In this document: piece after piece, positions 17,720 to 62,068 of the stretch
Numbering within the stretch: the stretch's first letter is position 1
Layout of the letters: every line of letters begins with the position of its first letter
Assembly: GCA_951406725.2 (NCBI GenBank)
Contig: OX597819.1
Location: 68,138,001 to 68,202,000, forward strand
DNA: 64,000 nucleotides
Reading direction: 5' to 3'
Origin: Octopus vulgaris
Lineage: Eukaryota
Notes under the pieces: generated by a model
What the model saw: the letters and a program-made list of their open reading frames with translations, nothing else
Told to the model about the DNA's origin: nothing
Database searches by the model: none
Translations under genes and position numbers: made by a program

Positions 17720-17720
<1 letters not shown>
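16815..17720 (+). mobile_element. 5'-truncated degenerate R4/Dong-type retrotransposon (CCHC + RLE + 3'UTR)
   Basis: Highly similar to 19385-20323; in-frame stop near 16936 and a frameshift in the A-run near 17260; flanked by (AAC/AAT)n and (AAT)n. Confidence 0.9.
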
Positions 17721-17805
<85 letters not shown>

Positions 17806-38289: not shown

Positions 38290-39235
38290 ATAGATATGTT
38301 TCTTTGTTGGCCACACAGGGTTGAACAAAATACAAAGTAGAGCTTATCTTTTGGGGAAGAAGAAGTGAACAAAAGAGAAAACTGTAGGTTGAATTCCGAT
38401 CAAACGGGATCGTGGAAAAAAAGGGGGATGACCGATCAATAGGGATCGTGTATCACAGAAATGTCAATGTAAAAACGGAAAACAGATTAGGTTTATCCGT
38501 GGAAAGAAAAGCCTACGGAAAAGACCATGGGCAATAGCATCATGCAAAAAAAAAACAACATATTACAGTAAGTGGCTCTCTTTTTTCCTTTCTTTTTCTT
38601 CGGTTCATAGGATTATGCTCAAGCTGGCTCCGTCATCCCCACGTACCATCCTTGCTACATTCACCCATCTTCTTTTGAAACATTCACTAGATAAAACTTC
38701 CCTCTTTACTCTCACCTTCCTCTTCAAGTGATACTTGAAGAAGTTGATGAGAAATTGACCAGAGCGGAAAGTATTTGTCTCTAGACCTTTCAGACGCGTC
38801 CACCATACACATTCTTTCGCCATAGCCACAAGTACGATGAAAATGGCTCTTCCTTCCCGTTTCAAGGAAGGAGGCGCGTCAATATTCACGATAGACTCGG
38901 TTGATAAACCGACTCGTCCCACACTCGATAGCAGTAGTTTGACATAGGCCCACAGGTCGGAAATGGTTGGACACTGTACGAGTGCATGCAGGACGGTTTC
39001 GTCGCTCTGACCGCGTCTCGGACAGGTCGGCCCCGTGTTTCTCGAGCCATGCCTGTAGAGATTATTCCGAACGGGAAGCGCTTCTGGATAGTACTACTAG
39101 GCCAGGGATCTCTGAAAGTTGTCCATAGGTTCCGGCCCGAAAGTCGTCTTGAACAGGCTGGTCAGGTATTCCTCGTCGACGCCCAGGTTCGCCTCGGGAT
39201 CATCGTCGTACCTCCCCTCCACTAATCCCCTATAG
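38290..39235 (-). mobile_element. Tx1/L1-group LINE 3' fragment (C-terminal CCHC region + 3'UTR)
   Basis: C..CGQSDETVLHALVQC-type knuckle, then LWAYVKLLL...AMAKECVWWTRLKG...FKRRW (ORF 38605-38922); ends AAAGAAACATATCTA; GATA-type repeats on both sides. Confidence 0.75.
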
Positions 39236-41280: not shown

Positions 41281-41727
41281 CTGCTGGCATGGCCTTCTCT
41301 CCTGTTAAGCTGGCTGACTGCTACAAGCGCACACATTACCGTATACACATTTACAATATATACACAAACCCACCTACATTAAGCGTAACACATACACACA
41401 CACATATCAAGGCTCCAAATATAGACAATTTGGCGGGAAAGCCTACAGCCTTGACCTTATTACGCTTACGTACAATAATAAAAGATTTTATAACATGTAA
41501 TATATTTTATCGTATTAATTTACTAAAATACTTCAAATTACTGCTTGTTTCTATAACATAAACTATTGCATATGTAAAAGTAAAGCGAACAACGTCAAAA
41601 TAATTTTATAACGTTTCATATATAATTTAATATAACACAAAAACTTCAAAACATAATCATCCATTGTGTTCAAGACTTACATTATATCTACTTGCCTTCG
41701 TCTCTTTATTGTAATCGCATATCTTTG

Positions 41728-41787
41728 ATAGTCGGTTGAGTATGACTTTCTAGTTTCTCTTGAAGGGGAACTCTCTAGTTTCCCCCG
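41728..41787 (+). ncRNA. Candidate U7 snRNA, copy 1 (5' end uncertain)
   Basis: ATGACTTTCT-AGTTTCTCTTG-AA-GGGGAAC..GTTTCCCC hairpin; followed by GTATTTAACAAAGAACAGA (3'-box-like). Confidence 0.62.
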
Positions 41788-41824
41788 TATTTAACAAAGA
41801 ACAGAATTTAATCATTATTCATTT

Positions 41825-42150
41825 ATTTGTTTCAGTCACGGCTGTGGCCATGCTGGAGCATCACCTTTGGTCAAATCCGCCGCAGGACTTACTATTTTGT
41901 AAGCTCAGTACCTATTCTATCGGTAGATTTTGCCGAAGCGCTAGTTTACGAGGTCGTAAACACACCAGCCTCGGTTGTCAAACTATGTTAAGGGAACAAA
42001 CATATATATATATATATACGATGGCTTCTTTCAGCTTCCGTCTACCAAAACCACTCACAGGGCACTTTGCCCAAGGGGCAAAGCGGGACTGAACCCGAAA
42101 CCGTGTGGTTGGTAAGCAAGCTACATACCACACAGCCACTCCTGCGCCTA
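41825..42150 (-). mobile_element. SINE family B
   Basis: Homology to other copies. Confidence 0.8.
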
Positions 42151-42679
42151 AGTATGTGATTTTCTTTCACTCGTTTGACTAAGGCCATGCTGGAGCAGCA
42201 CCTTAAAGGGGTTTTTTTTTCTAGTCGAAGAACTCGAATTCATGACTTGTACTTATTTTATCTTTCTCCCTTGCTGAACCGCTAGGTTACGGAGACAGAA
42301 ACACACCAACATCGGTTGTCAACCAATGGCAGGATTACAGACACATACGCAAATATAATGAGGTTTGTTTTTTGTAGTTTTCAGAGTTAATTTTGACTCT
42401 TATTTTTAGCAATCGCTGGTGCTATTTTTGCACCCTTTATTTATTAATTTGTCTTTGGATAATTGCTCGCGAGTTACTTATGTTTATGTCTTAATTAATT
42501 AATTAATATATCTTTGTAGTGTCTTTTTGTATTGATTATGTATAATGTTTGTTTTAAGTAAGGCACTTATTCCATCGGTCACTTTTCTCGAACCGCTACG
42601 TTACGGAGACATGAAGAAACTAATATCGGTTATCAAGAAGTGGGGTGGTGGGAAGGAACACAAAGAATCGTAGATATTA

Positions 42680-43492
42680 TGTTTGTATGTATGTATGGTG
42701 GGTGTAGAAGCGGTGGTGGTGGTGGCGGCGATGGTTTCGTGCCGTCGGTAGTGGTGGTAGCGATGGTGTGGTGCTGTCAGCGCGGCGGTCGTGGTGGTGA
42801 TGATTGTGATGGTTTGGTGTCGACGGTAGTGGTGGTGGTGGTGATGGTTGTGGTGGAGGTGGTTGTAGAGGTGTGGTGGTTGTAATGGTAGTGGTGGAGG
42901 TGGTGGTAGCGATGTTAGAAGAGGGGTGGTGGTGCTGGTGCTGGTGATGATTGTGATGGTGGTACTGGTGTCCGCAGTAGCGGTGGTTGTAGAGGTGGTA
43001 GCGATGGCTGATGGGCGCTGGTGATGGTAATGGTGGCAGTGTTGGTATTGCTGCTGCTGCTGCTGCTGCTGCTGCAACTGTTTGATACCTATTATTGTGG
43101 TGGGCGTGGCAGCGGATGTGAGGTGGTAGAGGAAGTGTTGAGGCTGGAGTACGATGAGATACATGTGGTGGTTGAGGAGCGGGGGAAGGGTCGTGTTACT
43201 GCTACTAACCACTTATGGTGGTGGCGAATACAGCGAACTGGCAGAATCGTCAGCACGCGGACGAAATGGTTCTGAGTTCAAATTCCACCGAGGTCGAATT
43301 TGCCTTTTTTATCCTTTCGAGGTTGATAAAATAAGTACCAGTTGCATAGCCGGGTCGACCACACTCAAAAGTGCTGGCCTTGTGCCAAAGTAAAAGAATC
43401 TGTTTTGGTGGCGGCAGTAGAGGTGGAGTTGGTCTTCATCGTAATGGCTGTTGTAGTTGTCATCATGATGGTGGCGGTAGTGGCGATGATTG

Positions 43493-43536
<44 letters not shown>

Positions 43537-43830
43537 GACTTGAATTGGTGGAAGTTGCGATCGTGAAGGCGGTGGTGGTGGTTGATCGTTGTGGTGGTTG
43601 TGGTGGTGTTTGTGGTAGTGTTTGTGCTAGTGTTGTGATGTTTGTGATCGTAGTGGTGGTGGAGGTTTTGGTGGTTGTGATCGTGATGGTGCTTGTTGTA
43701 ATCGTGGTAGTGGAGATGGCTGTGGTGGTGGTGGTTGTGATCGTGGTGGTAGTTGTGATCGAGGTGATGGTGGTGTTGATGCGTGTGATGATGGTGGTGG
43801 TTGTTGGGCTCGTGGTGGTGGTGTTTGTGA
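42680..43830. repeat. Degenerate (GGT)/(GAT) low-complexity tract interrupted by a SINE A copy (~43225-43395)
   Basis: Direct reading. Confidence 0.85.
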
Positions 43831-44358
43831 TCTGGGGGGGGGGGGTAACGTCGTTATACTAAACTAAATTATCCCCCTTTCGTTTATCATTTCTCTCGTT
43901 TCAGGCATCAGCTTATGGCCGAGCTGGAGCACTAACCTGAAGATTTTTGCAGTCTAATTAATAGACCCTTAGTCCTTTTTTTTCTTTTTGAAGCCTGGTA
44001 CTTACGTTCTCATTTTCTTTGCCGAACCGCCAAGTTACGGTGACGTAAGCATACCAACACCGGTTGTCACACGTTATAATGGAAGAAATGCATACACACA
44101 TACACACACACATACAAATTATTAAGGTGGCTATTCGCAATCTATAACCGAAAGGCAACAAGTATACTCGTCACTAGAGTGACGGAGCGTGCTACTAAGC
44201 ACGGGAATTGCTAGAAATAAGAGTAAAAACAACTCTTAGCCAATATATATATATATATATTTCAACTTCTTTTCTTTCAACATGTGATCTCTTGAGCACC
44301 ACCAGCGAAAAAATATTTTTCCTCTGTCTTCCCTTCTCGGGATCTTTCCTTCTCCTTT

Positions 44359-44393
44359 GTTTCCGACGAAGAGCTCCGCTCGAAACGTTAAAC
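44359..44393 (+). ncRNA. Minimal type I hammerhead with variant core CCGACGA
   Basis: GTTT-CCGACGA-AGAGC-TCC-GCTC-GAAA-CG-TT-AAAC; palindromic ACGT stem III; lies in a ~230-bp unit between TA runs. Confidence 0.65.
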
Positions 44394-44486
44394 CCTCCTT
44401 CGTTTCTTTTCTGAGCGTCAAATAATACTTTAATTGTTCCACGTCTTCGCGTTGCTGTGTTTTTTTCTGTGTTTTCTTGTTTGGAT

Positions 44487-44550
<64 letters not shown>

Positions 44551-44819
44551 TATATACAAAAAGCAATAAAGATCAAGTTAATTTAAATGAATTTACTTGA
44601 ATATGGTACCTAATTCTCTGGAAATTCATATGTGCACTATGGATTGGGTCACCTTCTCTGTGATGCTATTAAGACTTTTTTTAAAATTCTGTGATAAGAC
44701 TGTACATCATCTTTAAAGAACTTTAATGAACTTTTGAAATCTGTTTATGTTACTTAATTATCTACATTACTTCATGAGTATAGCCTCAACCACTAGGATG
44801 TCTAGAGAACTCACATGTA

Positions 44820-44910
44820 TTTTAGCTGATGAGTACGGGACACGTTTATATGCTGTAATTTTTGCAACTTTTAATAAAACCTGTCCTTGTATGAAACGAT
44901 TGTACTAAAA
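44820..44910 (+). ncRNA. Type I hammerhead with long stem II
   Basis: TTTTAG-CTGATGA-GTACGGGACA...TGTCCTTGTAT-GAAA-CGATTG-TA-CTAAAA. Confidence 0.78.
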
Positions 44911-44940
44911 ACCTATCCATTCTTGTTGCTTCATTCTCGC

Positions 44941-44998
<58 letters not shown>

Positions 44999-45103
44999 AA
45001 ATACAATAAAAGGCTTCCAAATAAGGAAGCGTTGTGCTAGAACGCAAAAAGAGATAAATTCACGAAAGGAATGAAAACTAAAAACATTTACCATCTCAGC
45101 TAT

Positions 45104-45181
45104 ATCCCAGACCGACGGTTTCAACCTATTTTTAGCAAACAAACAAAATATATTTGCCAAGGCCAGGTTCTTCAGTGGGAT
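45104..45181 (-). ncRNA. Type I hammerhead
   Basis: rc ATCCCA-CTGAAGA-ACCT...AGGTT-GAAA-CCGTCGG-TC-TGGGAT. Confidence 0.78.
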
Positions 45182-45444
45182 GCCTTCGTAATCCTAGATG
45201 CACAGACTGTTAGAAGCACATGTAGATCTAACGGTTTGTAAATCCTAACTTTTCAAACCTCTGCGCAGACGCAAACCATACCCGGCAATACAATTATATA
45301 AATTAGAGAAGAACCACCATGAAGCAATTCAACAATGATATTCTTAAACCAAAACATATATAAAAAATTAAAGATTCGATAAAACATTTACCTAAAACTA
45401 AATAAAGTACTAAATAATAAATAGTATATAATTAGTAAATTAAT

Positions 45445-45526
<82 letters not shown>

Positions 45527-46228
45527 GACGGGCCTCTTTCAGTTTCCACCAACGAAGCCTATTCACTAGGCTTTGGTCGGTCCGAGACTATAACAGAAGA
45601 CATTTGCCCAATGTGCCACGTAGCTTGACAGAAAGCAGAAACCAGAACCATTTAGGTGAGAACCAAACTCCTCACCACGCAGCCACACCTGCGCCATTAT
45701 ACTGTATATCATTCAAAATAACTTTAAAACCAGCGAAATGACTGTTTATTAATAAACTGAGGCAGCTGGTAATATCTATTAACACTGATATAATCACTCA
45801 ATATTTTACATCCAGATTATTAAATGCGATAATCTTTGACAGATTTCAGAATAATATGCTTAATATTGATTTACTCATGTCGTTGATATTTTATATAAAA
45901 CCATTTGGTGTGCATAGTGCTTTGTTCTGTTTCTTATTTTGTTATACTTTTAGTTGTGGCCATACTGGAGCTTCTGGAAGGGTTTCGGCAATCAGAACGT
46001 TTCCTGAAATTACTTAAGCCTTGTAATCTTATGAACAGTTACTTTACAGTAATGCCAATACTTGTAGTGAAACAGTGAAAGACACATATTGCGTGCAGGC
46101 TCGCTCGAGTGTGTGTGTGTGTGCGTGTGTGTGTGTGTGAATGAGAGAGAGAGAGAGAGAGGGAGAGAGAAATAGACAGACAGACAGAATCTGTCTATTT
46201 ATCTATCTATTTTTTCATCTAACTGTAG

Positions 46229-46720
46229 AGGCGCAATGGCCCAGTGGTTAGGGCAGTGGGCTCGCGGTCGTATGATCACGGTTTCGATTCTCAGGCCGGG
46301 CATTGTGAATGTTTATCGTGCAAAAACATATAAAAGCTCCACGAGGCTCTGGCAGGGGTGGTGGTGAACCCTGCTGTACTCTTTCACCACGACTTTCTCT
46401 CACTATTTCTTCCTGTTTCGTTGTACCTGTATTTCAAAGGGCCAGCCTTGTCACACTGTATCATGCTGAATCTCCACGAGAACTACGTTAAGGGTATACG
46501 TGTCTGTGGAATGCTCAACCACTTGCACGTTAATAAATGAGCTGCGACGTCACTGGTACCAAGCTCCCTTTCCCTTGGATAACATCGGTGGCGTGGAGAG
46601 AGGAGGCTGGTATGCATGGGCGACTGCTGGTCTTCGATAAACAACATTGCCAGACTTGTGCCTCGGAGAGTAACTTTCTAGGTGCAATTCCATGGTCATT
46701 AATGACCGAAGGGGGTCACA
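46229..46720 (+). mobile_element. SINE family D head/body joined to a different 3' segment (46537-46720)
   Basis: GGCGCAATGGCCCAGTGGTTAGGGC...GGTTTCGATTC. Confidence 0.8.
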
Positions 46721-46879
46721 ATATCTATCTGTCTGTCTGTTCATCTATCTATCTATTTATCAATCCATCTCTCCTCTCTCTAAATATATATATGTGTATA
46801 CCCTTTTACTTGCTTCAGCCATGGTCTTTCTCATTTCTCCAATCCAGAGTGTTTCCCATCACCACTCCTGTCTCTGCAT

Positions 46880-47930
46880 TTGTCCCAGCTGTTGGCTCAT
46901 TTGGTGTATAGAAGAATTTGATTCCGCTGCCACCGTATTTGCCTCATATCGGTCTTTTGGTTCATTCGGTATCGTGGAGAGGAAGATGTCTAGTCCGTTT
47001 TTGAAGACATCTTCTTCCAACTTATGCAGATTTCTTAATTTTTGTGGCAGGGCATTGAAGACCTGTGGACGTTTGAACCTTAGGCTATTGCAAAACATGT
47101 TCTTGAATATAGATGGAGTGGATGGTACCTCTGGTACAATACAATGGCGTCGAGTTCTGACTTTTGTATAATATTCAACACCGAAATTAGGTACTAGCTT
47201 TTGTAGATTCTTCCATATGTAGATTACATATCTGTCACGCTTTCGCTCCTGAGAGTAAAGTTGCAATTTTCTCAGCCTATACCTGTAGCTCATCCGCTGC
47301 ACTGTATCAATATTTTTAGCGTAGTGGCATTGGACTGCTACAAGCGCCACTGTTAGTTTAGCAATATGTGGTGACGATAAGTGGAAGCAGTAGTCCAGGC
47401 GGCTGAGAACAGAGGTTCTCTGTTGGGTCAGCATAGTTTCTTGGTCTCTTGTCTTCAACGAACGCAAAGACTATCCTGCCAGTTATCTGCACTTTGCTGC
47501 CATCTTGGTAATGTGCATATAAAAAATGGATCATTGCACATACTGATCTCTAGGTCTTTCACTGCCTGTGACTCAGCGATTGAAGTGCCTTCGGGTCCCG
47601 TATATGCAGGCTGTAGTGCATTCGTGAGTTGATAGTGCAGTGCTTGAAATTGTTGTTTACTTCGGCTCACTTATATATTGAATTCAGTTCCCACTGTGTG
47701 CTTGCGACGTCATCTTGATTTTTTTATTGCCTGTGATAATTTTGTATCATCGGCATAGTTAGTGGCAGTGGCTGTCTGAGTGACCGTGGGCATGTCTAAG
47801 AGGGTTATTATGAGCAGTATCGGCCCCAGAACAGTTCCCTGGGGAGACGCCACCTAGGATTTGAGTTTCCTCAGAAAGGCACATTTGCCTGCAACTACCT
47901 GGATTCTGTCTGTAAGGAAGTCATGCAGGG
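46880..47930 (-). mobile_element. Degenerate CR1/L2-group LINE RT fragment
   Basis: PQGTVLGP, YADDTK, VLSRLDYC, IPNEP; homologous to 30100-31130. Confidence 0.85.
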
Positions 47931-48518
47931 GTCGTGATGACAAAGTGAATAATTCCCGTGTGTATAACAAAGTCAAACAAATAAGTATATTTATGGTTAA
48001 AATATGATAAATATAATAAATGTAACGGGACGTGGAAATAAAATGTAGAGCAAGGAGTGGAGACCCTACATACGACCCCCCAACACAGCTAATGTATATA
48101 TCGAAATTGGCAGGAAAACATCATTCACTTTGTTATATATCAGTTTTATGCACTCGTTCAACTACGCGTGAAGTTAATTGTTTATCACAACAACTACAAT
48201 TTAAAATATTTATTAATTTCGAAAATATCTTACATAAAACCATTTAATATATTCAAATGGTAGGTTCTTATGTCATAGAAATTTTACTGTCTCACGACAA
48301 TGATTTAATTTCAATTAATATGTAAACTCTTAAATCAGTGAATGCTCTTAAGATCAACGTTACATATATTTACTGTTTAATTTAAACTTTATTTGGAATT
48401 TTTTTTAAAAAACCCTATTCGAACTTACAATAAATCATCTATGTATTTGTATTGTCCTGGAATGTCCCTTTCTATGCACGATTTTTATGATCATAATAAA
48501 GAATTTCGCATATCTTTA

Positions 48519-48578
48519 CTAGTCGGATGAGTTGAACTTTCTAGTTCCTCCCGCCAGGGAAACCTACGTGATTTCCTC
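48519..48578 (+). ncRNA. Candidate U7 snRNA, copy 2 (diverged, possible pseudogene)
   Basis: CGCATATC..TAGTCGGATGAGTTGAACTTTCT-AGTTCCTCCCG-CC-AGGGAAA...TTTCCT. Confidence 0.4.
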
Positions 48579-48919
48579 ATTTGCAAATGAATATCAAATC
48601 TATCTTTATACTCTCTCTGTCATACATTCACTTTCGTTTCCATTCCACCTTGCTTGGGCAGACTATGTATATATATATATATATACATACATATATATAT
48701 ATATTCATATACATACACGCGCACACACACACATATATATATATATATACATATATATGTGTGTATATATATGTACATATATGCATATATACACATATAT
48801 ATATGTATGTATGTATGTATATATATATATGTATATATATACATATATATACATACATATATATATGTATGTATATATATATTTATGTATATATATATAT
48901 ATATATATGTATTTTTATG

Positions 48920-48956
<37 letters not shown>

Positions 48957-48982
48957 GTATATATATATATATTCATATACAT

Positions 48983-49013
<31 letters not shown>

Positions 49014-49076
49014 CATAGATATGTATGTATATATATATATGTATGTATATATATATGTACATATATGCATATATAC

Positions 49077-49109
<33 letters not shown>

Positions 49110-49283
49110 ATTTTGTTATGGATATTTCTACAGGTATACTATAGAACGTATAGCCAACACTGAGTTTTGCTACAACGTTTCGTATCTAGACGTCAGATGT
49201 AAACAGACAATGTAATCGAAGACGAAAGTGGTTAATAAGTGTATATGCCATATTTCGAGGTGTGTTGCCCCTTCTTCAACACT

Positions 49284-49319
<36 letters not shown>

Positions 49320-49389
49320 CGGAGTAAACACATAAATGTGAAACAAGGTGGAAAAAAGAGTACTCAAATACCAGTGGTAGAGTAATATG

Positions 49390-49553
49390 CTTTATTTTAA
49401 GCAGCAGAAAATTCAACAAAATCTGTTACTCTGAGTTTCTCGTTGCCGTTCATCAGACAGTTTTTGCTAGAATCTAGCAAAAACTGTCTGATGAACGGCA
49501 ACGAGAAACTCAGAGTAACAGATTTTGTTGAATTTTCTGCTGCTTAAAATAAA

Positions 49554-49554
<1 letters not shown>
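49390..49554. repeat. Perfect 81-bp-arm palindrome with hammerheads on both strands (49423-49460 -, 49484-49521 +); Penelope-type inverted pLTR in (TA)n
   Basis: Arms 49390-49470 and 49474-49554, loop AAT; CTGT-CTGATGA-ACGGCAACGA-GAAA-CTCAGAG-TA-ACAG. Confidence 0.9.
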
Positions 49555-49594
<40 letters not shown>

Positions 49595-51791
49595 CCTTTT
49601 GCTTTGCGAACTGACGGGAATCGCCCGGACAAAGTGTAACTGCGGTAGGATGCAACATTACAAGACATTTTCGTTTCGTATCATATTGGGCAATTCTCAT
49701 CTCAGGTTCATTCAACCTCGACCAAGGATGAGGTGAGTAATAGAGGCAAATTATCGGTACATTTTCGAAATTGCTCTCTTTGTGACTACAGGTGTACTGC
49801 TTCGCTTAAATGCCCAAAGTGGCTTCTTTGTGGCTTCGATAGTATTTGTCGTGGTAATGGAGATTGTTGGTTGCTTCACTGAATCTCAAAGACGATTATG
49901 TTTGGAAATGTCACCAGTATTATACTTTATTTCAAGAATTATTAATCTATGTCTAATATGAGATAAGAAACTTATTACCAAAATAATTTCCCGATTTGCC
50001 CTTTTCTCTGTGATTAAGTTCTAATTCCGATTCTTTATGTTACCTCTTGTTATGGAGTCAACAATATTCTCTAAGTTAGTAGCTTTATAATTTTGCGATT
50101 TTCGAATATTCTGATATTCAAAATCAATGATTAGAGATAGAATTGACATTTAAACATTTTCAATCGCAATGAAATAGTTTGATAACCATATGTAACTGGA
50201 TCCTCAATATAAGTGCTCAGTTATCCAATGAACTAATTCTCCTCTGATTAATTTGGTGAGTGGCCGAATATTCCACAGAAATATGTACTTATATTGTATT
50301 TCACAATTAGAATCTTTGTAACACAGTGACGTAAGGCCGGACCCAATTTTTCCTATCACTCTATCCTACGACATTCCATACTTTCCAGCAACATTGTTTG
50401 ACTTCAAAATGTGGTGGAGGCCAATATGGTCAATCAATGCAGCTCGGGACCGTCAGTTCCCGACCTTCAAAAAACTTATTTACAAAGTTGTCTACAGCCC
50501 CTCCCTTGAGATAGAAGATCACATATTCTTCATTATTTTCACTGGGAAGGGCCACAGATTCCTCCGTCGGTGGCACACGTCCCACCGACGAGGCCTCGGG
50601 ACATGTCAGCAGTGCATTGTAATCCACTGGCACTGTCCCATTCCTTTTTACTTCTTTTTTGTCTTTGATGCGGGAAGGGTTGGCACCTTCGCCTTGACAT
50701 CGCTTCCTCCCGCAACTTTTGGATCCTTCGGAGAGCAACCATTGTTGCTCCTCTTTTTCCTTTTTCTCCCCTTTTTTCCGGGGGAGGGCTCTCCCTCCTC
50801 CCCTACTTCGATCTCTCCTTCCGGAGGATGAAGGGGGCTCTTACCAGCTTGCGTACTGGAAAAAAAAACATTAACGAGATGAGTGATGAAAGGATGGTAT
50901 AAATGGGAGAAAGCAAAAGACGCCTACCGATCTTCTGCTTCTCTAAAATCTTGTTCTTTTTCTTTTCAAAACAAAAAACAAAACGAGGTATTAAACCTCA
51001 TACCTCAGTTCTACAATTACTAGACTTAATAGTCCACTACAAATTGAGGCGCCGAGACTCTACAGGCAAAAACGATACGAGGCACTAAGCCTCTTAATTA
51101 TTTTCCACCTCGCGGGACCCGACCAGGCTCAGTGGCTCAGTCAAGCACCTCGATGGTGCTAGGTCGGGGTTCTTCAGCATAAAGCGGAATGTGTATTTGG
51201 GGAAGGCGTTCACCACCTTGCACAAGTTTGTTCCCCACACGACCTCCGCAGCTACCCGCAGAGGCCAATCAAGGTTCTTAGTATAGGTTAGAATCCCTTC
51301 CCTCCGACCTCCTTTGTTAAACTTTCTAACAAATTCTTGAGTTGCCCTTCCCTTGTGGAATAGGATTACAAATTCCTCCTCCACGTAGGGAGAGTCCACA
51401 CTTTCCACCGTCGGTGGCACAATTCAAGACAGTTCAAGTCACGGCAACACACAGTTCCGGCCACTCGATAACCCTGGCCAACAGGTATTCCCCCCAAAAG
51501 GTACTCCAAACAGGCAAAGTCGACCTCGGCTGAATTTGAATTTAGAACGTAACGGAAAACGAAATACCACTAAGCATTTCACACCACGTGATTTCTGCCA
51601 TCTCGCCGCCTTGAACAGCAAGCTATATAACGGGGACGCTGTCGCTCGCTCTCTATCAATTTCTCTGTCTCTATCACTTGACACCTCTCTCTCTCTCTCC
51701 TTCTTTCTTTCTGTCTCTTTCCCTGTATGACTGTCTGGCATTCTCACTCCCACTCAGTCACTTTGTCGCTTCCTCTCTCTCTCTCTCACGC

Positions 51792-51829
<38 letters not shown>

Positions 51830-52044
51830 TCTACCACGTCTTCAGTGGTGGAACAGCGGCCATACTGGGGTCACTGCCTTGTAGGGTCTACTCGAACAAA
51901 TCGACCCCAATATGTATGCATGTATCTATCTAGCTATCTGGCAATCTATTTATGTATGTTTAGAGACAAAAAAGAGAATAAGAAAGATAGAAAGGGAAAG
52001 AAGGAGAGACGGAAAGCGAAAGAGAGAGAGATAAAGGGAGTGTG

Positions 52045-52292
52045 TTAAATGTTTTTTTTTTGGAAGCACTCCGTCGGTTACGACGACGAGGGTTCCGGTT
52101 GATCCGATGAACGGAACAGCCTGCTCGTGAAATTAACGTGTAAGTGGCTGAGCACTCCACAGACACGTGTACCCTTAACGTAGTTCTCGGGGATATTCAG
52201 CGTGACACAGAGAGTGACAAGGCCGACCCTTTGAAATACAGGTACAACAGAAACAAGAAGTAAGAGTGAGAGAAAGTTGTGGTGAAAGAGTA
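52045..52292 (-). mobile_element. SINE family D, 3' part
   Basis: rc ...CCCTCGTCGTCGTAACCGACGGAGTGC. Confidence 0.85.
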
Positions 52293-52553
52293 CGTGTGCA
52301 TTTGTTTAAAATTTTAAAATCGCCATCCTGTTTCATCAGAATAATTAGCCAAAATTTCAATAACGCTACCTATTTCTCTAAGAAAATTATTTGATATGTA
52401 AAGAGAAAGAGTCGACCATGAGCAATTTTTTAATAAAGCTGAACAATAATTTAATATTTTTCTATAAATTAAATCCCAAATCATCTAATGTATTTGACAT
52501 TCTTGTTATATATATCCGACTTTGTCCTTGTCCAAATTATCGCATATCCAAAG

Positions 52554-52615
52554 ATAGTCGGTTGAGTATGACTTTCTAGTTTCTCTTGCTGGGGAGCTCA
52601 TGTGGCTCCCCCAAT
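52554..52615 (+). ncRNA. Candidate U7 snRNA, copy 3 (best-formed; 5' end uncertain)
   Basis: ATGACTTTCT-AGTTTCTCTTG-CT-GGGGAGC-TCATGTG-GCTCCCC-CAAT; then ATATAACCAAAAATCAGA. Confidence 0.65.
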
Positions 52616-52825
52616 ATATAACCAAAAATCAGACTTTTTGTTGCAAATACGTCCGTACATGTCCGTATAAATTACTTTATAAATTAGTTATTGGACTGTG
52701 GCCATAGCGGAGCATCAACTTGAAAGCTTTAGCCTGTCTATGAGCAAACTATAACCACAGGCATTTTTATCGCTTGCTTCCCTACCTTGAAATTCTGTAT
52801 TAGTCGTATGCCCTACCTCATGAAC

Positions 52826-53360
52826 ACTTGCTGTCACACCTAGGAAGAGTACAGCTATCATTTCAGATTGTGATCAAGAGTGTACCGCCCACCGGATTAT
52901 CCAAACAGGATGAGGCTTGCTTTCTATGTACGGTCGCAGTAATGAAAGAATGTACATTGAGAACTAGAATGCAAGGGATCGAGACAGGAGCCTTCACATC
53001 CGGCAATGGAATACTGCTCTACTTTAGGTATCACCTGAAAGGCAAGATAAAGCTGGAGAAGAGGCTCCTGTTTTCTCCTTACCGTGGAAGTGTTGAAAAG
53101 AATGGTTATGGAAGACAAAAATGCAAGGACTCGTGATGGAATCTTCATCTCTGGCCCCGGTTCACTCATTTATTTCAGATATCATCCGAAGAGCAAGATA
53201 GGGCTGAAGAGGAGACGACTGTCGCGAGGTGTGTTGGAGAAAAGATGGAAGGCAGTGGTAAGTAAAGTGGGTGCAAGTGACTCGGCTTTAATCACCATGG
53301 AGAAAGATAAAGGTATTGTCGCTGGGCTTTTCGGCCATCAGGGTGAATCCACCCGCTAGC
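52826..53360 (+). mobile_element. Tx1/L1-group LINE C-terminal fragment with internal duplication
   Basis: LLSHLGRVQLS...AVMKECTLRTRMQGIETGAFTSG..LLYFRYHLKGKIKLE aligns by eye with 38605-38922. Confidence 0.7.
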
Positions 53361-53530
53361 CACAAAAAGTGTAAAATATATTATATACTATATATCATAT
53401 AATCATCAAAATTTTTAAAATTGAGTTTTATCCGAACTCATTTTAACATTTATCTGTTTGTTCTGTCTTGTTTGTTCTATCTGTTTCAGATAATTATTAT
53501 CATAATAAAAAAAAATATCGCATTTCTTTG

Positions 53531-53590
53531 ATAGTCGGTTGAGAATAACTTTCTAGTTCCTCTTGCTGGGGAGCTCATGAGGCTCCTATT
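53531..53590 (+). ncRNA. Candidate U7 snRNA, copy 4
   Basis: ATAACTTTCT-AGTTCCTCTTG-CT-GGGGAGC-TCATGAG-GCTCCT; then ATATAACCAAAAATCAGG. Confidence 0.55.
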
Positions 53591-54832
53591 ATATATAACC
53601 AAAAATCAGGCTCTTACTTATAAATACACACGTGTATTTTTTATATATATATATTATTTACTACTGCATTAAGTTGTTGGTCCGCGGTCATGCTGCAGCA
53701 TCAATTTCAAAGCTTTAGTCTTGCAATGGGCAAATGTAGCCAACATCACTTTTTTAATTGTTCTGCCTACCTTGAAATTCCTTTTTAGTACTGCACCCTG
53801 CCTCATAATAGGTCTTGTCAGACGGCCAGATCCCCTTCAATTATAGGCCATATCTCCATTCATCGAACGTATCCATCCCATTTCTTTTAAGCCTAGTTCC
53901 TATTCGATCGACTCGCTTTTACTAAACAGTTAGCTATATTACGGGGACGGTATCATTCCCTCCCCGCCCTCTCTCCTTTTTCTCAGCCTCCGTCTCTCTC
54001 ACTAAGCCCATCTATCTGTCTTTCTCTCCATGTCTCTCTCTTTCTGTCTCTCGCTCAGTCACACGCACACACATACCACCCCTCCCTCCACACACAACGT
54101 ATCCCTTGTCTCCAGGGATGGCACAGCAGCCATGCAGGGGGTGCTGCCTTGAATGGTTTAGTCGAACAATGCGACCACAATACATGTTTTTTTTTAAAGT
54201 CTGGTTCTTCATTTGTTTCTGTTTGCCGAAACTCTGGGTTAAGGTCACGATTTACTTACAAGCTATCAGTCGGCTCGGATCTCTTGTAGAAACCATTCGA
54301 CCCAGGTGCCATGCAGTTGGACAGAACCAAAACCTGAGTGACTGCAAACAACTTTCTTAATTATGCAACATGGGTGTGTCTGTCTGTCGGTCTGTCGGTC
54401 TGTATGTATGTATGTATGTATGTATGTATGTATCTATGTATGTATGTACGTCTGTATGTGTGTTTAGAGTGAGAGAAACAGAGGGATGAGTGACAGAGTG
54501 GGTGAGAGAGAGAGAGAGAGAGAGAGAAATAAAGGGAGATAGTTATATGTTTATATCATCCAACGTAGACGCGTGTGTATTTGTTTAAAATTATAAACAC
54601 GTCATCCTCTTTCATAAGAATAATTTGTCAAAACCTTCAATAATGCTACCTATTTCTCTAAGAAAATTATTTGATATGGGCAGTAAAAGAGAAGACTATC
54701 AGTGATTTTTTAATAGTTTTGAACAGTAATTTAATATTTCTCAATAAATTAAATCCCAAATCATCCAATGTATTTGACATTCTTGTTATATATATCCGAC
54801 TTTGTCTCTGTCCAAATAATCGCATATCCTAG

Positions 54833-54894
54833 ATAGTCGGTTGAGTATGACTTTCTAGTTTCTCTTGCTGGGGAGCTCATGTGGATCCCCCAAT
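54833..54894 (+). ncRNA. Candidate U7 snRNA, copy 5
   Basis: Matches copy 3 except one hairpin mismatch (GGATCCCC). Confidence 0.62.
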
Positions 54895-55627
54895 ATATAA
54901 CCAAAAATCAGACTTTTTGTTTTAAATACATGTCCGTATATATTACTTAATGCATTCTTCAGTTATTGGACTGTGGCCATACCGGAGCAGCAACTTGAAA
55001 GCTTTAGTCTTGCTAAGGGCAAACTATAACCGCAGGAATTTTATTGCTTGCTTGCCTACCTTGAAATTATGTATTAGCGATGTGCCCTACCTCATGGGGT
55101 CCACTCCTATTGAATCTTACTTTAATTGAACAAATCCACCGCATTTCTTGTAAGCCTGTTCTTTATTCTATCGATTCGCTTATACTGATCAGCTAGCTGT
55201 ATTACGGGGACACTATCGCTCGGTCTCTTGTCTCTCTTTCTCTCTCTCTCTCACTTACACCATTTCTCTTTCTTTCTCTACTTTTTTCTCTTCCTGTGTA
55301 TAACACTCTTACTCTTACTCTCACCCTCACTCAGTCACATCGTCTCTTCCTCTCGCTCCCTCTCTTGCTCTCATGCACGCAAACACACGCTCACAGACAC
55401 ATGCAAATACACACACACACACAAATTCATACAACATCTCCCTTGTCTTCAGGGATGGCACAGCAGCCATGTAAGGGCACTGACTTGAAAGGTCATGTCG
55501 AACAAACCGACCCGAGTATTTATTTCTTTCGAAGTCTGCTTCTTACCCTATGGTTTTTCTTTTTGCCGAACCTCTAAGTTAAGGGGACGAAATTCACTTA
55601 CAAGCCATTAGTCGGTGAAGGTCTCTT

Positions 55628-56190
55628 GTAGAAAACATTTGTCCTTGGGAGCGAGCGGGCAGAATCGTTAGCCCGCCGGGCGAAATGCGTAGCAGTATTC
55701 CGTCTGCCGTTACGTTCTGTGTTCAAATTCCGCCGAGGTCGACTTTGCCTTTCATCGTTTCGGGGTCGATAAATTAAGTACCAGTTACGCACTAGGGTCG
55801 ATGTAATCGACTTAATCCGTTTGTCTGTCCTTGTTTGTCCCCTCTGTGTTTACCCCCTTGTGGGTAGTAAAGAAATAGGTATTTTGTCTGCTATTATGTT
55901 CTAAGTTCAAATTCCATCAAGGTTGATTTTGCCTTTAATTCTTTCGGGATCAAACTCACATCATCCAATATGTGTAAGATTTTTGTTACATATATCCGGC
56001 TTAAAAGCGATAAGCTGACGAGGTGGCAGAATCGCTATCCCGCCTGGCGAAATGCTTAACGGTATTTCGTATGACTTACGTTCAAAGTTCCAGTTCCGCT
56101 GAGGTCTGGCGTTGATGTAATCGACCGAATCCCTTCGTCTGTCCTTGTTTGTTCCCTTTACGTTTATCCCCCGTGTGGGCAATAAAGAAA
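55628..56190 (+). mobile_element. SINE family A copies (one full length, plus partial copies)
   Basis: Homology to 9908-10142. Confidence 0.85.
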
Positions 56191-56199
56191 TATATATAT

Positions 56200-56357
56200 A
56201 GGAGTGGCTGTGTGGTAAGTAGCTTGCTAACCAACCACATGGTTCCGGGTTCAGTCCCACTGCGTGGCATCTTGGGCAAGTGTCTTCTGCTATAGCCCCG
56301 GGCCGACCAATGCCTTGTGAGTGGATTTGGTAGACGGAAACTGAAAGAAGCCTGTCG

Positions 56358-56394
<37 letters not shown>

Positions 56395-56609
56395 TTGTGT
56401 GTCTGTGTTTGTCCCCCTAGCATTGTTTGACAACTGATGCTGGTGTGTTTATGTCCCCGTCACTTAGCGGTTCGGCAAAAAGAGACCGATAGAATAAGTA
56501 CTGGGCTTACAAAGAATAAGTCCCGGGGTCGAGTTGCTCGACTAAAGGCGGTGCTCCAGCATGGCCGCAGTCAAATGACTGAAACAAGTAAAAGAGTAAA
56601 GAGTAAAGA

Positions 56610-56610
<1 letters not shown>
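56200..56610 (+). mobile_element. SINE family B, young full-length copy
   Basis: GGAGTGGCTGTGTGGTAAG...GGTTCAGTCCC...CTTGGGCAAGTG...GGCGGTGCTCCAGCATGGCCG...(GTAAAGA)n. Confidence 0.9.
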
Positions 56611-56659
<49 letters not shown>

Positions 56660-56665
<6 letters not shown>

Positions 56666-57149
56666 ATCGCCATATTAATATGGCAGTCTTATAGATATAA
56701 GACTAAAAGCTGTCGCTGATTAGCTCCATGAGGCCATCGCCTTAAGATAGCTATTTGACACACAAACTGTGTCCATTATAACCTTCGAACAAGGGAGGTC
56801 AGCCGCTTCACACTGCCAGTCAGACAGCTACAGACGCGTTTCAGGGTATTTGCCCTTTGTCAATATAGCGTAGTCGACCCAGCAGGTGTCGCCACTGATC
56901 GTCTCTGTTCGAAGGTTTTATTTACCTAGTTTCGACTACGCTACATTGACAAAGGGCAAATACCCTGAAACGCGTCTGTAGCTGTCTGACTGGCAGTGTG
57001 AAGCGGCTGACCTCCCTTGTTCGAAGGTTATAATGGACACAGTTTGTGTGTCAAATAGCTATCTTAAGGCGATGGCCTCATGGAGCTAATCAGCGACAGC
57101 TTTTAGTCTTATATCTATAATACTGCCATATTAATATGGCGATAACAAT
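56660..57149. repeat. 218-bp-arm inverted repeat (54-bp spacer) with variant hammerheads (56827-56869 -, 56940-56982 +), in (TA)n
   Basis: Arms 56660-56877 and 56932-57149 with about 2 mismatches; GCTACA-TTGACAA-AGGG..CCCT-GAAA-CGCG-TC-TGTAGC. Confidence 0.88.
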
Positions 57150-57371
57150 TAATTTCCAGTAACGCTGCCGTAATCTCTTTTAGAGAGACTTAGTAATTTT
57201 AATATTTCTATTATAAATAAATAAATAAATATATATATATATATATATATAAATATAAGAGAGTGACCACTATGTGGTCTACTCTAGCACTAAAAATAGA
57301 TCCATTGAGCTTCAGCCACATAAAATCACCCTCATTAGTTGATTATATATATATATATATATATACATAAA

Positions 57372-57407
<36 letters not shown>

Positions 57408-57409
57408 AA

Positions 57410-57465
<56 letters not shown>

Positions 57466-57469
<4 letters not shown>

Positions 57470-58581
57470 TAAAAAAGAATTCCAACCTTGTCTGATTTTC
57501 ACGTTTTATTTACAATCTTATAATGATATATTATAAGATAATATATTATAATTGAATAAAATAAAATGAAATAGTAGAATGTTAAATATTCATTCTGATT
57601 GAACTAGTACTTTCATGCATTGAATTCTGCAATCTTCGGGTTCATGTAGTAGTGTTGACAGTCATGCTTCACAATTTTTGACTGTAGCAAGATGAGTGAT
57701 TCTGTGCTATAAATACAGCTGGGTAGGCTCCAGAGTGCTAGGTTTTGCAAACTGTATTCTGACCAATCAGTGTGTAGTATCACTCAATTACTTAAGCTGA
57801 TTGGTTGGTTGAGCTGATTGGTTTAGGCATCACGCTTTGTTGGACAGGTCAAGAGTCCTGTATCTTGACCCTGGCCGAAGCAGCAATTGTTGGGTTATTT
57901 TTAGAAATGTTGTAAATATCCTTTGTCAGAGATTTTTATATTTTTATATTTCAATTGTCATCATCATCATTGTCAGCACCTTAATTATTGTTGCTAGTGG
58001 TGATGGTGGTGGCAATAGAACTTTTAACCCTAAATAAGATAATTTTCCTGCTATCTTCGTCTTGATCACCTTTAGTATTGTTGTTGTTGTTAGTGGTCAT
58101 GGTCGTAGCAGTGGAAGTAATACCTCTAAGTATTATTATTATTGCTTATTTAGCTTGGGTTCGAATTTATCAATAAAATTCTTTTCTCTGATTTTCCTCT
58201 CGATTTCACTTGGGCTGTGTAATTTGTAGAATGGAAATATTATATATATTTTCCGACCACATGTTGCTAGGTGGTTACTCAAAGGTATCTGACGGACCTC
58301 TGGGTCTCTAATCTGTTGCCGGTGTACACGTGAGCGTTCTAATAGTGCGTTTCCCGTCTGACCTACATATATTTCTTCACAATTTGGGCATTTGATGCAG
58401 TAAATTAAATTTCTGCTTTTGCAGTTCATATTCGCGTTTGTGAATATTTTCCCGGTTTTTGTGTTTATATATTGACCGGTATGTATGAATTGGCATGTGC
58501 CACATCGGCTATCATTGCATTTAGATACCGTGAATGTTTGGTCTTTGTTGCTGAGGTCAAATTTTGCCTTTGTTAGTAATG

Positions 58582-58582
<1 letters not shown>
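57466..58582 (-). mobile_element. 5'-truncated Penelope-like element (GIY-YIG endonuclease + 3'UTR/pLTR with hammerhead at 57600-57644)
   Basis: Flanked by (TA)n on both sides; rc TGAAC-CCGAAGA-TTGCA...TGCAT-GAAA-GTAC-TA-GTTCA. Confidence 0.88.
58139..58582 (-). CDS. GIY-YIG endonuclease domain of a Penelope-like element (partial)
   Basis: CNDSRCGTC, CKSRNLIYCIKCPNCEEIYVGQTG..L.ER..H, H..C, R..RE..FI..F.PKLN. Confidence 0.88.
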
Positions 58583-58625
<43 letters not shown>

Positions 58626-58626
58626 A

Positions 58627-58670
58627 TCGCACACCTAGTTTCTCTTGGTGGGGAGCTCATGTGGTTCCTT
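58627..58670 (+). pseudogene. Candidate U7 snRNA, copy 6, with 5' segment deleted
   Basis: TCGCACAC-CT-AGTTTCTCTTG-GT-GGGGAGC-TCATGTG-GTTCCTT. Confidence 0.5.
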
Positions 58671-59102
58671 CTATATATAACGAAGCATTCTGACTAGGTT
58701 ATAAATACATACGTATATGTCTCTATATATATATATTATCTAATAGTGCATTCACATGTTGGTCTATGAGCATCAACTTAAATGCTGTATTCTTGCATTG
58801 GGTAAACGTAGCCAACGGACGTTTTAAATTGTTCTGCCTACCTTGAAATTCATTTTTGGTTGTGCACCCAGCCTCAAATATTTTTTCTTCTTTCTACGCC
58901 CATGATTTGCAAACAACAGAAAATTCTGTATGTATAAAAACCCCAAGAAATCTAACTTTAAACCATTTTGTGATAAATCTGATAACGGAAGAAAGCGCTA
59001 AAAATGTAAACGAAATGTACAAAAAATATATATATATAATCATCCAACATTCTGACTACCTTATTATTCTAAGTATACAATATTTGTACATCATTCCAAA
59101 TC

Positions 59103-59177
<75 letters not shown>

Positions 59178-59293
59178 GTATATACATGTGTGTGTGTTTA
59201 CATATTCACAGACATGCACACACATACTCAAATACACATAAAATCTTACCTATTAGTAGATAGTTGAAATTTATAGAAAAACAAAAGACATTA

Positions 59294-59372
<79 letters not shown>

Positions 59373-59719
59373 TACACACACATTGACACGTGCGCATATA
59401 TCAAATCACAAAATTTTGATAATTTTGTTGGGAAACAAATATCGTCTGCTTTCTTGTTGCATCTGAAATAAATAAATATATATTTATGACTCGTATATCT
59501 TTTCATAAAATATTTACTAAAATCTTCCACGTTGCTACATATTTCACAATGATAATTGTTTGATATGTATAGTAAGCAAAAAATCTATGACGTAAGTTTT
59601 AAAAGATTTGAATAGAAATTTAATATATTGTGATAAAGTAAGAACTAAATCATCCAACGTGTTTAAATTTATACTATAGAGCCAACATTTTTGTCTGTAT
59701 ACGAATCCCACATAGCTCC

Positions 59720-59776
59720 TAGTCATTTGGGTATGACTTTATGGTTTCTCTTGAAGAGAAATTCCTGTAGTTTCCT
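59720..59776 (+). ncRNA. Candidate U7 snRNA, copy 7 (diverged)
   Basis: TAGTCATTTGGGTATGACTTTAT-GGTTTCTCTTG-AA-GAGAAAT...GTTTCCT; upstream flank homologous to the other copies. Confidence 0.42.
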
Positions 59777-62068
59777 ATGATCTTATGTAAAAAAAAGACA
59801 TAGACATTTTATCTTTTTTATGTTTGGTTTATTTCAGTTATTAGACTGCTACCATATTGGAGTAACGTTCTGAAGTCAAGCAAATCGACGACATTTTGAA
59901 ATCTGGTTAGTAACTTTATAGGTTCGCTTTTACGGAACAGTCGAAGTGGGGAGTGATTGGCGAAGCAAGCACAAACGTGCCACGCACACACATACACACA
60001 CACATGCCCCGCCCCCCTCATATATATATATATATGGGGGAGGGGCTGCTTGTGTTTACTTCTTCACCCACCCCCACTTCGACAATTGTAGTTGGTTTCT
60101 TTACATCGTCATTCAGCTGTTCCGTGAAAACAAACCTATAGAGTTAACTACAAGATTTTAAAATGGTGTCAATTCCCTCGAATAAAGACTTCAGAACGTT
60201 GCTCCAGTATGCCAGCAGTCCAATAACTGAAATAAACCAAATACACATAATCTTGACTCCATCCATGATAAATTTGTGAAGAAACTGTGAAGAAGCTGAT
60301 CAGATGGATTGTAGCTGTACTTCTTATCATAATATGTCGTGCAGGTTCAAGCTGAAAATGAGTTACGGCGATGAGTACACATGTCAAGGAATACTCAATT
60401 ACCTCTCATTACCTATTAATTCAATTAATAGGTTGTTAAATTTGGCCGAACAACTGGTCTCCCATATATTGAAATCGACGGGTAATTACATGACGCACAC
60501 AAAAAGCTTATATGCGTATATCGTTTACTGCCCCGCAAGGAAAATCATCATGATTTCCCCATTTTGAATCTGGTAATCCCAAATGCTTGTGGCGGCATTC
60601 ACCCGGGATGGGTTGAGCAAGCTCCGAGCAACGAGTTGTTCATGTTCGAAGTTTTAGTGGAAATAAAAATTCCCATGTGGTCCTCGGACACATGTATATA
60701 CACTCTAGGTCAGTGTGATCAGTCGCAGCTCGTCTTACCGTCGATTGTCGACTGTTGCAGAAGATTCACTCTCTAAATCATCGCCAATTATCAAACAAGA
60801 CGCAGTATGGGTGTGAAACATGTACTAGAGACATGCTTTAACAAAAGCTAAGAGGTGCCTTACTGCCAATGATCTCCCAGCACGCCGGGCATCAATCCTA
60901 AATTTCTCAGAGCCCGTGTTATTGCTAGATAGTCACCGAATCTACACTAAGTTCATCCGGCCAGATCACTTGTGCGATATCTCATGACTACTACCGGGGT
61001 AACACGGAATCCACAATCTCCTGTTTGCACGATCGGGTCATCGAGAAGCAAACGGGCACCTCCCACTAGGTTTGCCTGGTGAAAAGGGTTGCTAGAAACC
61101 CAGCAGGACTAGATACAAGACATGTGGAACGGATGAATAAAGGTAATTCCAAGTGCATGAACAACTCGTACTGGAAACACAACAACGCTAATTCAGTCAC
61201 AATGTACTCAATCTTCTCCTTCAATATGCGTTGATCTCGCATTAATGCTCCGCCAATCCTGGAAAACATCATTTTGTAGATGTTAAGTGACCGGATGAAA
61301 CAATTACTTTTCTATGGTAATCAGATGAGTAAATTCTGTTAGATCTGCCGGTGCTGAGCAGACTCAATGCATCCCATTTATTTGCAATCGTCAATTGAAG
61401 TTTCTTCAATCTTGTATAAAGCAGAGATGATTAAGGGAGTAAGAGAAACGCTAACACAAGGAGTTGAACAACCGGTACATTTAACAAGCACTACAGTTTT
61501 AGACTACAAATCGTTGATATTTTGCAAAGCGTTGCTTTTACGGAAAATGGAAAAAAAATATATAATTTCAACTTTTCATAGCAAAACCATAATACTATAC
61601 TTTACCAATTTTTGATATTGTGGCATCTGAAGCAGCTGGAGATACGATAGTTTGACCAAAAGAACTGGCTATTGGAAGCAAAAACAATAGTGACAAAAAA
61701 CTAATAAAAACGCGTTTGGCCAAATTTGGACATACGACAGTTTAACATAATAGCAACGAAATGTGCCATAAACTTCAACTAACATCTCTCTAAACTAACT
61801 GTCCGTCGCCTCGTTGACATATACAGAGTTAATAGAGCAGGGTTAAGAGAGAAGCGTAACATCACGAGATATGGCAGAGTCTAATGGCTGAAAGAAGTAG
61901 AAGATTAAATATAAAGTTTATCAAGTTTCCTAGCGCTTATAAAAAATAATGAAATGGAAATTAACTTTCGAAAGACAAATATTTATTAATTGAAAATAAA
62001 ATTGGATAAAATAAATTCTAATTTGTATATTTTCAACACATATTTTATTAATTTTTGAATTTTGATCA

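Follow-up and report, generated by a model that had tools for sequence, protein, structure and literature searches.

A candidate U7 small nuclear RNA gene cluster in Octopus vulgaris with an extended guide complementary to histone downstream sequences

A 64,000 nt stretch of the Octopus vulgaris genome (C6:68138001-68202000; genome size, 2.8 Gb), referred to here as the window, carries seven plus-strand copies of a short element, spanning positions 41714-59778 of the window. The most probable identity of the element (probability of roughly 0.9) is octopus U7 small nuclear RNA (snRNA), with transcription predicted from flanking motifs. In animals in which its role has been tested, histone mRNAs depend on U7 for their 3' ends. 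The same identity had been proposed in a preliminary description of this DNA and is supported by an snRNA promoter and 3' box, a U7-type Sm site, position-specific complementarity to sequences downstream of histone genes, a low copy number, and the presence of a gene for Lsm10.

Taking the A of ATCGC as the first base, the elements begin at positions 41714, 48505 (where the sequence reads TTCGC), 52539, 53517, 54819, 58626, and 59705, and include all seven of the copies listed in the preliminary description, the coordinates of which marked the TAGTC core. A covariance model trained on five window copies and three dispersed copies, and applied to the window only (very diverged copies elsewhere may escape it), returned exactly seven matches, with copies 2 and 6, which were not part of the training set, scoring 53 and 36 bits. 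Seven genes had been implied, whereas only about three of the copies (1, 3, and 5) appear intact, and these are the likely working genes. Copy 1 (41714-41787, with the predicted 3' end placed to ~2 nt) consists of a guide (41714-41751), an Sm site (41752-41762), and a hairpin (41765-41784), and the same predicted architecture is found in copy 3 (52539-52613; guide 52539-52577, Sm site 52578-52588, hairpin 52591-52611) and copy 5 (54819-54892; guide 54819-54856, Sm site 54857-54867, hairpin 54870-54890). The remaining four copies are damaged: copy 2 (48505-48578), with a severed promoter and a mutated Sm site, and copy 4 (53517-53589), with mutations in the guide, Sm site, and hairpin, are likely pseudogenes, copy 6 (58626-58672) is a pseudogene from which most of the guide has been deleted and which has neither a promoter nor a scoring 3' box, and copy 7 (59705-59778), in which an Sm-like site and hairpin are kept beside a diverged guide, is decayed or a variant. 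No host gene was seen among the window open reading frames (ORFs) of ≥120 amino acids. Between the distant copies 1 and 5, identity reaches 96% in the guide and Sm site, compared to 60% in the hairpin and 58-70% in the upstream blocks, such that the earlier observation of a core better kept than its flanks applies to distant copies, but not to copies 3 and 5, which are a recent duplicate with flanks 70-100% identical.

The element is rare in the genome. A BLAST search with copy 1 gave eight matches (four in the cluster, two on C7, one on C9, and one on C1) and a degenerate pattern for the 26-letter core likewise gave eight, with none for the reversed control, which excludes chance as the source of the copies; both counts are lower bounds. 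A neighboring short interspersed nuclear element (SINE) has a read depth >1,000-fold that of the element in contigs of other organisms (four organisms in all; the contigs are of unrecorded kind and have no bearing on expression). The preliminary description had named a dispersed transposon family as the case that copy number would distinguish, and the eight matches in 2.8 Gb argue for a low-copy element. There are features of the surroundings that could suggest the end of a transposon or SINE, such as a Helitron terminus, multiplied by local duplication and devoid of RNA function, as the window is mostly repeats, pieces of long interspersed nuclear elements (LINEs) and SINEs adjoin several copies, and four of the seven copies are damaged. 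Such an origin is exceedingly improbable considering the small number of matches relative to the neighboring SINE and the conservation of the body above its flanks together with an snRNA promoter and 3' box, and it leaves the complementarity to histone genes unexplained.

The dispersed copies also carry information on the ends of the element. The pair on C7 reproduces the region between copy 5 and a point past copy 7, beginning exactly at +1, while the copy on C1 starts at +2. The copy on C9 covers only 54819-54894 (97% identity); it is embedded in an (AT)n tract and continues into the tail of a widespread SINE. This RNA-sized copy (L003:1421-1560), with a 3' end fused to the tail of a high-copy SINE, resembles a template-switch chimera and is read as an snRNA-SINE retro-chimera, which would be indirect evidence of transcription; an origin at the DNA level is also possible.

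Upstream of copies 1, 3, 5, and 7 are two motifs, AATTTAA (-88 to -91) and AATCAT (-57 to -60), and a 3' box is carried by copies 1-5 and 7, with spacing as in the U1, U2, U4, and U5 genes of this octopus genome. Those genes carry A(A/G)TTAA at -89 to -92 and a (T/C)CA(G/A) core with its CA between -55 and -58 (ATCAG at about -58), and their 3' box ends in (C/T)AGA(C/T) 16-22 nt past the RNA. Based on matrices trained only on 15 U1/U2/U4/U5 genes and scored at 127,460 positions, the whole promoter of copy 5 (54728-54776; AATTTAA at -91, AATCAT at -60; also covered by contigs of the four other organisms) ranks in the top 0.016%, that of copy 3 (52448-52496; AATTTAA at -91, AATCAT at -60) in the top 0.04%, that of copy 1 (41624-41672; AATTTAA at -90, AATCAT resembling a proximal sequence element (PSE) at -59) in the top 1.8%, with the A-box in the top 1.2%, and that of copy 7 (59617-59665; AATTTAA at -88, AATCAT at -57) in the top 9%, with the A-box in the top 0.6% and a poor PSE matrix score. 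The best promoter site overall (48303-48345; ATTTAA and AAATCAGTG) was found ~113 nt upstream of copy 2 and is the displaced promoter of that copy, with the ~113 nt 3' end of a LINE with a zf-RVT domain (48392-48504, plus strand) intervening at the predicted start of the copy. Clear matches to an snRNA-type promoter belong to copies 3 and 5 and to the displaced promoter of copy 2. A LINE 3' fragment (52821-53516, plus strand) reaches +1 of copy 4, where no snRNA promoter remains; the upstream sequence common to copies 2 and 4, considered as a second type of promoter, is this LINE 3' end. Copies 1, 3, 4, and 5 have 3' boxes that all score in the top 0.04% of positions (copy 1, 41788-41806, top 0.04%; copy 3, 52614-52633, and copy 5, 54893-54912, top 0.01%). 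Copy 5 also has a canonical-looking ATCAGTG at -120, which is not taken as the true PSE, being missing from copies 1, 3, and 7 and altered in the contig sets X3, X5, and X6 of other organisms.

A start at ATCGC is marked both by the dispersed copies (+1 or +2) and by the contigs of other organisms, including one contig of set X6 over 54648-54848, in which at least 22 of 24 differences fall upstream of 54819, two of them at the bases just before it. The predicted RNA is 72-75 nt in length, with the 3' end placed from the spacing of the 3' box and the copy on C9. The snRNA genes of this genome are clustered as well, with 42 matches for U1, 48 for U2, six strong matches for U4, and 26 for U5 (C18, C3, C23, C25, and C4).

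Past the guide, AGUUUCUCUUG fits the Sm consensus of U7, RUUUNUCYNG (PMC5054213), and has C8-U9, which PMC7026596 describes as a constant feature of U7 that spliceosomal snRNAs very rarely have. The Sm site AGTTTCTCTTG is found in copies 1, 3, 5, and 6, while the U4 and U5 Sm sites of the same genome read (A)ATTTTT. The 3' hairpin of copies 1 and 3 has 8 bp, at the lower end of the 8-15 bp with basal G-C pairs used to recognize U7. In copy 5, the hairpin has one G-A mismatch at 54885, a position that is C in all four other organisms, which closes the mismatch. A search for the processing machinery that covered Lsm10 and SLBP identified a single-exon Lsm10 gene on C2, which matches human Lsm10 at E 4.6e-24 (next match, 1.3e-7) and encodes a protein 98% identical to that of O. 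bimaculoides, and an SLBP gene on C8.

The element's snRNA promoter, Sm-like site, and GTA within a weak hairpin are also compatible with another kind of Sm-class snRNA, for example a spliced-leader RNA whose 26-nt leader would end before GTATGA; in spliced-leader RNAs, the Sm site follows the GTA junction (PMC3795323). Several details make this identity very improbable. The bases before GTA at the junction are GA, not WWG, and the Sm site is not AT4-6G. A 5' pattern restricted to the putative leader gave six genome matches, compared to four for the control, and five of the six are the known copies with one unrelated; therefore, there are no leader-bearing retrocopies. Molluscs are listed among the phyla mostly never proven to use spliced leaders (PMC3795323), and a spliced leader would leave the ordered complementarity to histone genes unexplained.

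The Rfam Histone3 model gave 73 matches, from which 30 loci and 40 further stretches yielded 70 distinct stem-loops; 56 stem-loops behind a recognized histone ORF (one H1-like added by hand) formed the target set, with 14 dropped, and 29 remained at <75% identity. The guide, the 38-39 nt 5' part of the element, complements three motifs behind the histone stem-loops in antiparallel order. The first, AAG(T/C), is present in 15 of the 29 histone genes (shuffle mean, 1.2) and starts at +17 in 12 of those 15. The second, CGA(C/T) at +24 to +36, is present in nine (shuffle mean, 1.1). The distal motif, TGCG/(A/G)TATG/ATGTGC, is the most frequent (23 of 29; shuffle mean, 1.7). Its partner in the RNA is nt 1-10, a segment kept among copies 1, 3, and 5 while the linker that follows varies, and the shifting location of the motif, between +36 and +46, agrees with the variable linker at nt 11-15. 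The canonical AAGA was found in none of the 29 histone genes at +13 to +23, and the AGAAAG-type histone downstream element (HDE) anticipated by the preliminary description gives way to AAG(T/C). In these sequences, AAAGU/ACUUU stands in place of the AAGA/UCUUU pair, the pairing being kept and the letters changed. The expectation that a pyrimidine-rich anti-HDE segment pairs downstream of histone genes was correct with regard to the complementarity, though the first 10 nt had gone unrecognized as guide. De novo, the three most enriched 5-mers (TGCGA, GCGAT, and AAAGT) are all Watson-Crick complements of the guide, in antiparallel order, and among the 20 most enriched, 13 pair with the guide (eight by Watson-Crick pairs, five with G-U) and seven do not.

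Two further features were seen among the histone stem-loops. TCATG/CATGA is enriched at +11 to +13 in 9-10 of the 29 downstream regions and has no Watson-Crick pairing with the guide (L018-L047, L072-L111). A family of stem-loops with a common downstream sequence has no histone ORF within 200 nt, and its pairing with the guide is poor, at -9 to -16 kcal/mol (L086, L090, L091, L093, L103, and L105); it is probably a repeat carrying a stem-loop.

The mean duplex energy between the guide and positions +6 to +55 of the 29 histone genes is -19.0 kcal/mol for copy 1 and -19.2 kcal/mol for copy 5, compared to -12.0 and -11.9 kcal/mol for shuffled guides (0/200 reaching either copy) and -12.7 and -12.5 kcal/mol for shuffled targets (0/100 each). 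On the same targets, the controls gave -10.2 (U1 5' end), -12.5 (U2 5' end), and -11.3 (the diverged copy 7, z -2.1). The signal is confined to +6 to +55, as 18 other intervals beat their own shuffle by ≤0.6 kcal. After the cost of self-structure is included, the duplex values are -9.1/-7.8/-8.2 versus -4.3/-3.9/-3.7 (0/30), and the complementarity holds in H2A, H2B, H3, and H4. In a shuffle-corrected complementarity scan of 597,582 positions, copies 5, 1, 3, and 2 rank 1, 2, 6, and 9.

It is conceivable, if rather unlikely, that the element is U7 and only the block next to the Sm site works, with the distal histone motif serving the U2 5' end or a DNA-binding factor and matching the guide incidentally. 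Consistent with this, the 19 nt beside the Sm site pair above chance on their own (z -7.4), the U2 5' end, which also starts with AUCGC, slightly beats shuffled targets (z -3.4), and the distal block floats over +36 to +46. When the guide is divided, however, the strongest signal comes from nt 1-12 (z -11.4), followed by nt 27-38 (z -6.4) and nt 14-28 (z -3.8). Further, the GATATG of H3/H4 finds pairing in the U7-like RNA but not in U2, the U2 5' end does not outperform its own shuffles (9/60), and nt 1-10 are conserved in copies 1, 3, and 5 while the next linker varies.

A number of observations weigh against the identification of the cluster as U7. Transcription of the U7-like copies is predicted, not observed. 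The PSE core is ATCATC where the other snRNAs have ATCAGT, and the PSE score of copy 1 is unremarkable (top 23%). The UCUUU box, called universal in U7 (PMC5054213), reads ACUUU here. Scoring with the Rfam U7 model (RF00066), the check put forward in the preliminary description, gave 11 bits for copy 1 (E 7.2), short of the cut-off of 34, although the model aligns over the correct elements. The hairpin was described as keeping its pairing while its sequence changes, which is visible (86.3% of 80 cells paired, both-sided change in two of eight pairs) but not statistically established, because column shuffles reach the observed values in 44/500 and 408/500 cases, and covariation is not above them. 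With regard to the targets, the single classified H1 gives mixed results, and the z-scores overstate independence, as the 29 histone genes fall into classes of related sequences. In the complementarity scan, leaving out the shuffle correction puts the copies at ranks of only 2, 8, and 15, and with correction, a flank of the U1 cluster nearly equals the candidate (z 6.5 versus 7.5).

None of 65 candidate loci scored across the genome reached the Rfam U7 cut-off, and nine matches elsewhere in the genome, all under the cut-off and with flanks judged by eye, were rejected. An Rfam scan of the whole window returned nothing at the gathering score, and the 150 matches listed by E-value are microRNA models, mostly on simple or inverted repeats. 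The U1-cluster flanks, repeated sequences that account for the remaining top hits of the complementarity scan, were considered as a second U7 family and rejected, being by eye without a hairpin, PSE, or 3' box. Approximately 250-300 nt downstream of U1 genes, a repeat unit reads AAGT..CCGAC..ATATGC, the block order of the histone genes (L054:1880-1940; L051, L052, and L058); its near-match in the complementarity scan represents one repeated unit and is possibly chance.

If the cluster encodes U7, transcription by RNA polymerase II would begin at ATCGC under the control of AATTTAA (-90) and AATCAT (-59) and end 72-75 nt on, before the 3' box, and an Lsm10/Lsm11 ring would assemble on AGUUUCUCUUG, upstream of the 3' hairpin. 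In the cell, the predicted partner of AAG(U/C), at +17 after the histone stem, is the GACUUU beside the Sm site, that of the middle CUC..CGAC block is AGUCG...GAG, and that of GAUAUG/UGCG, at +36 to +46, is AUCGCAUAUC. As in the known pathway, the histone stem-loop would be bound by SLBP and cleavage by CPSF73 would fall 4-5 nt past the stem, and the constant placement at +17 is in keeping with the established ruler for cleavage. The guide has a weak hairpin of its own (-5.7 to -7.1 kcal/mol) that covers GACUU and, speculatively, could mask the Sm-proximal block while the free first 10 nt act as a toehold, or the hairpin may simply follow from two target blocks complementing each other. There is a slight preference for the view that octopods have rebuilt histone-message recognition around a 38-nt, three-block guide, with a distal seed and subsequent opening of the hairpin, in place of the purine-rich core of vertebrates.

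The predicted length of 72-75 nt exceeds the 57-70 nt used as the length criterion for U7. In flies, the extra length of U7 resides in the hairpin and the guide is ~20 nt, and Drosophila U7 is a single gene, whereas the octopus copies form a cluster. At 70-73 nt (PMC5054213), Drosophila U7 is near the octopus RNA in total length, and it belongs to another protostome with a lineage-specific HDE. The U7 of sea urchin, frog, and zebrafish (PMC5054213) share clustered copies and the RUUUNUCYNG site with the octopus, while sea urchin U7 is 57 nt. Vertebrate U7 (RF00066; human, 63 nt, in an excerpt of PMC7026596) has the same order of guide, Sm site, 2-3 nt, and 3' hairpin, along with the C8-U9 Sm site, CUUU 2-3 nt before the Sm site, RNA polymerase II snRNA-type flanks, and Lsm10. 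The octopus differs in a guide of 38-39 nt compared to 20 nt in human (same excerpt), in ACUUU/AAAGU compared to UCUUU and histone AAAGAG, and in pairing that extends in three blocks to +46.

In the literature searched, no paper joined U7 snRNA and octopus, and U7 snRNA and mollusc returned only an off-topic paper on Vibrio in mussels; mollusc predictions might be contained in Davila Lopez and Samuelsson 2008 and in the supplement of PMC5054213. A bivalve histone paper reports purine-rich elements and, in the excerpt available, no U7 (PMC6210712), and a 2026 preprint on evolution of the pathway, likewise as an excerpt, takes metazoan U7 from Rfam and leaves molluscs unmentioned (10.64898/2026.10.14.759114). 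Within that literature, this would be the first mollusc U7 described, and as the candidate is invisible to Rfam, Rfam-based annotation would miss it. If correct, the identification would fill the mollusc gap with a case of joint change in U7 (UCUUU to ACUUU) and its target (AAAGA to AAAGU), would double the known guide length, with a bearing on the duplex tolerance of the U7 particle and the design of U7-based antisense carriers, and would offer a recipe for U7 discovery where Rfam fails, namely reading the guide off the histone genes.

Beyond the candidate genes, the 3' end of one family of zf-RVT LINE (near ATAATAAAG) is located at +1 of copies 2 and 4, the C7 copy, and one U2 gene (48392-48504 and 52821-53516 of the window; L005:1-1500; L065:1-1500), and all of these LINE-abutted starts begin with ATCGC or TTCGC. 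The same LINE end also occurs in histone clusters (L029, L040, and L108) and before a shared repeat (L113-L118). Possibly, the LINE targets snRNA start sites. As with Tx1-clade LINEs such as Keno (PMC4494074), it adjoins snRNA genes including a U2 gene, and it differs from Keno in abutting, with its 3' end, the +1 position of U2 and of three U7-like copies. Long inverted repeats that resemble miniature inverted-repeat transposable elements are found at 56660-57149 and 49385-49559 (both 98-99% complementary), 35807-36030, and 59823-60241, the first three of which draw sub-threshold Rfam microRNA matches. Retroelement remains occur at 17437-20106 and 30233-31243 on the plus strand and at 38605-39093, 46859-47470, and 58139-58693 on the minus strand, including, based on Pfam, an 889-amino acid frame with reverse transcriptase and zf-RVT, a zf-RVT fragment, and a GIY-YIG fragment immediately upstream of copy 6, as well as two related LINE-like fragments judged by eye.

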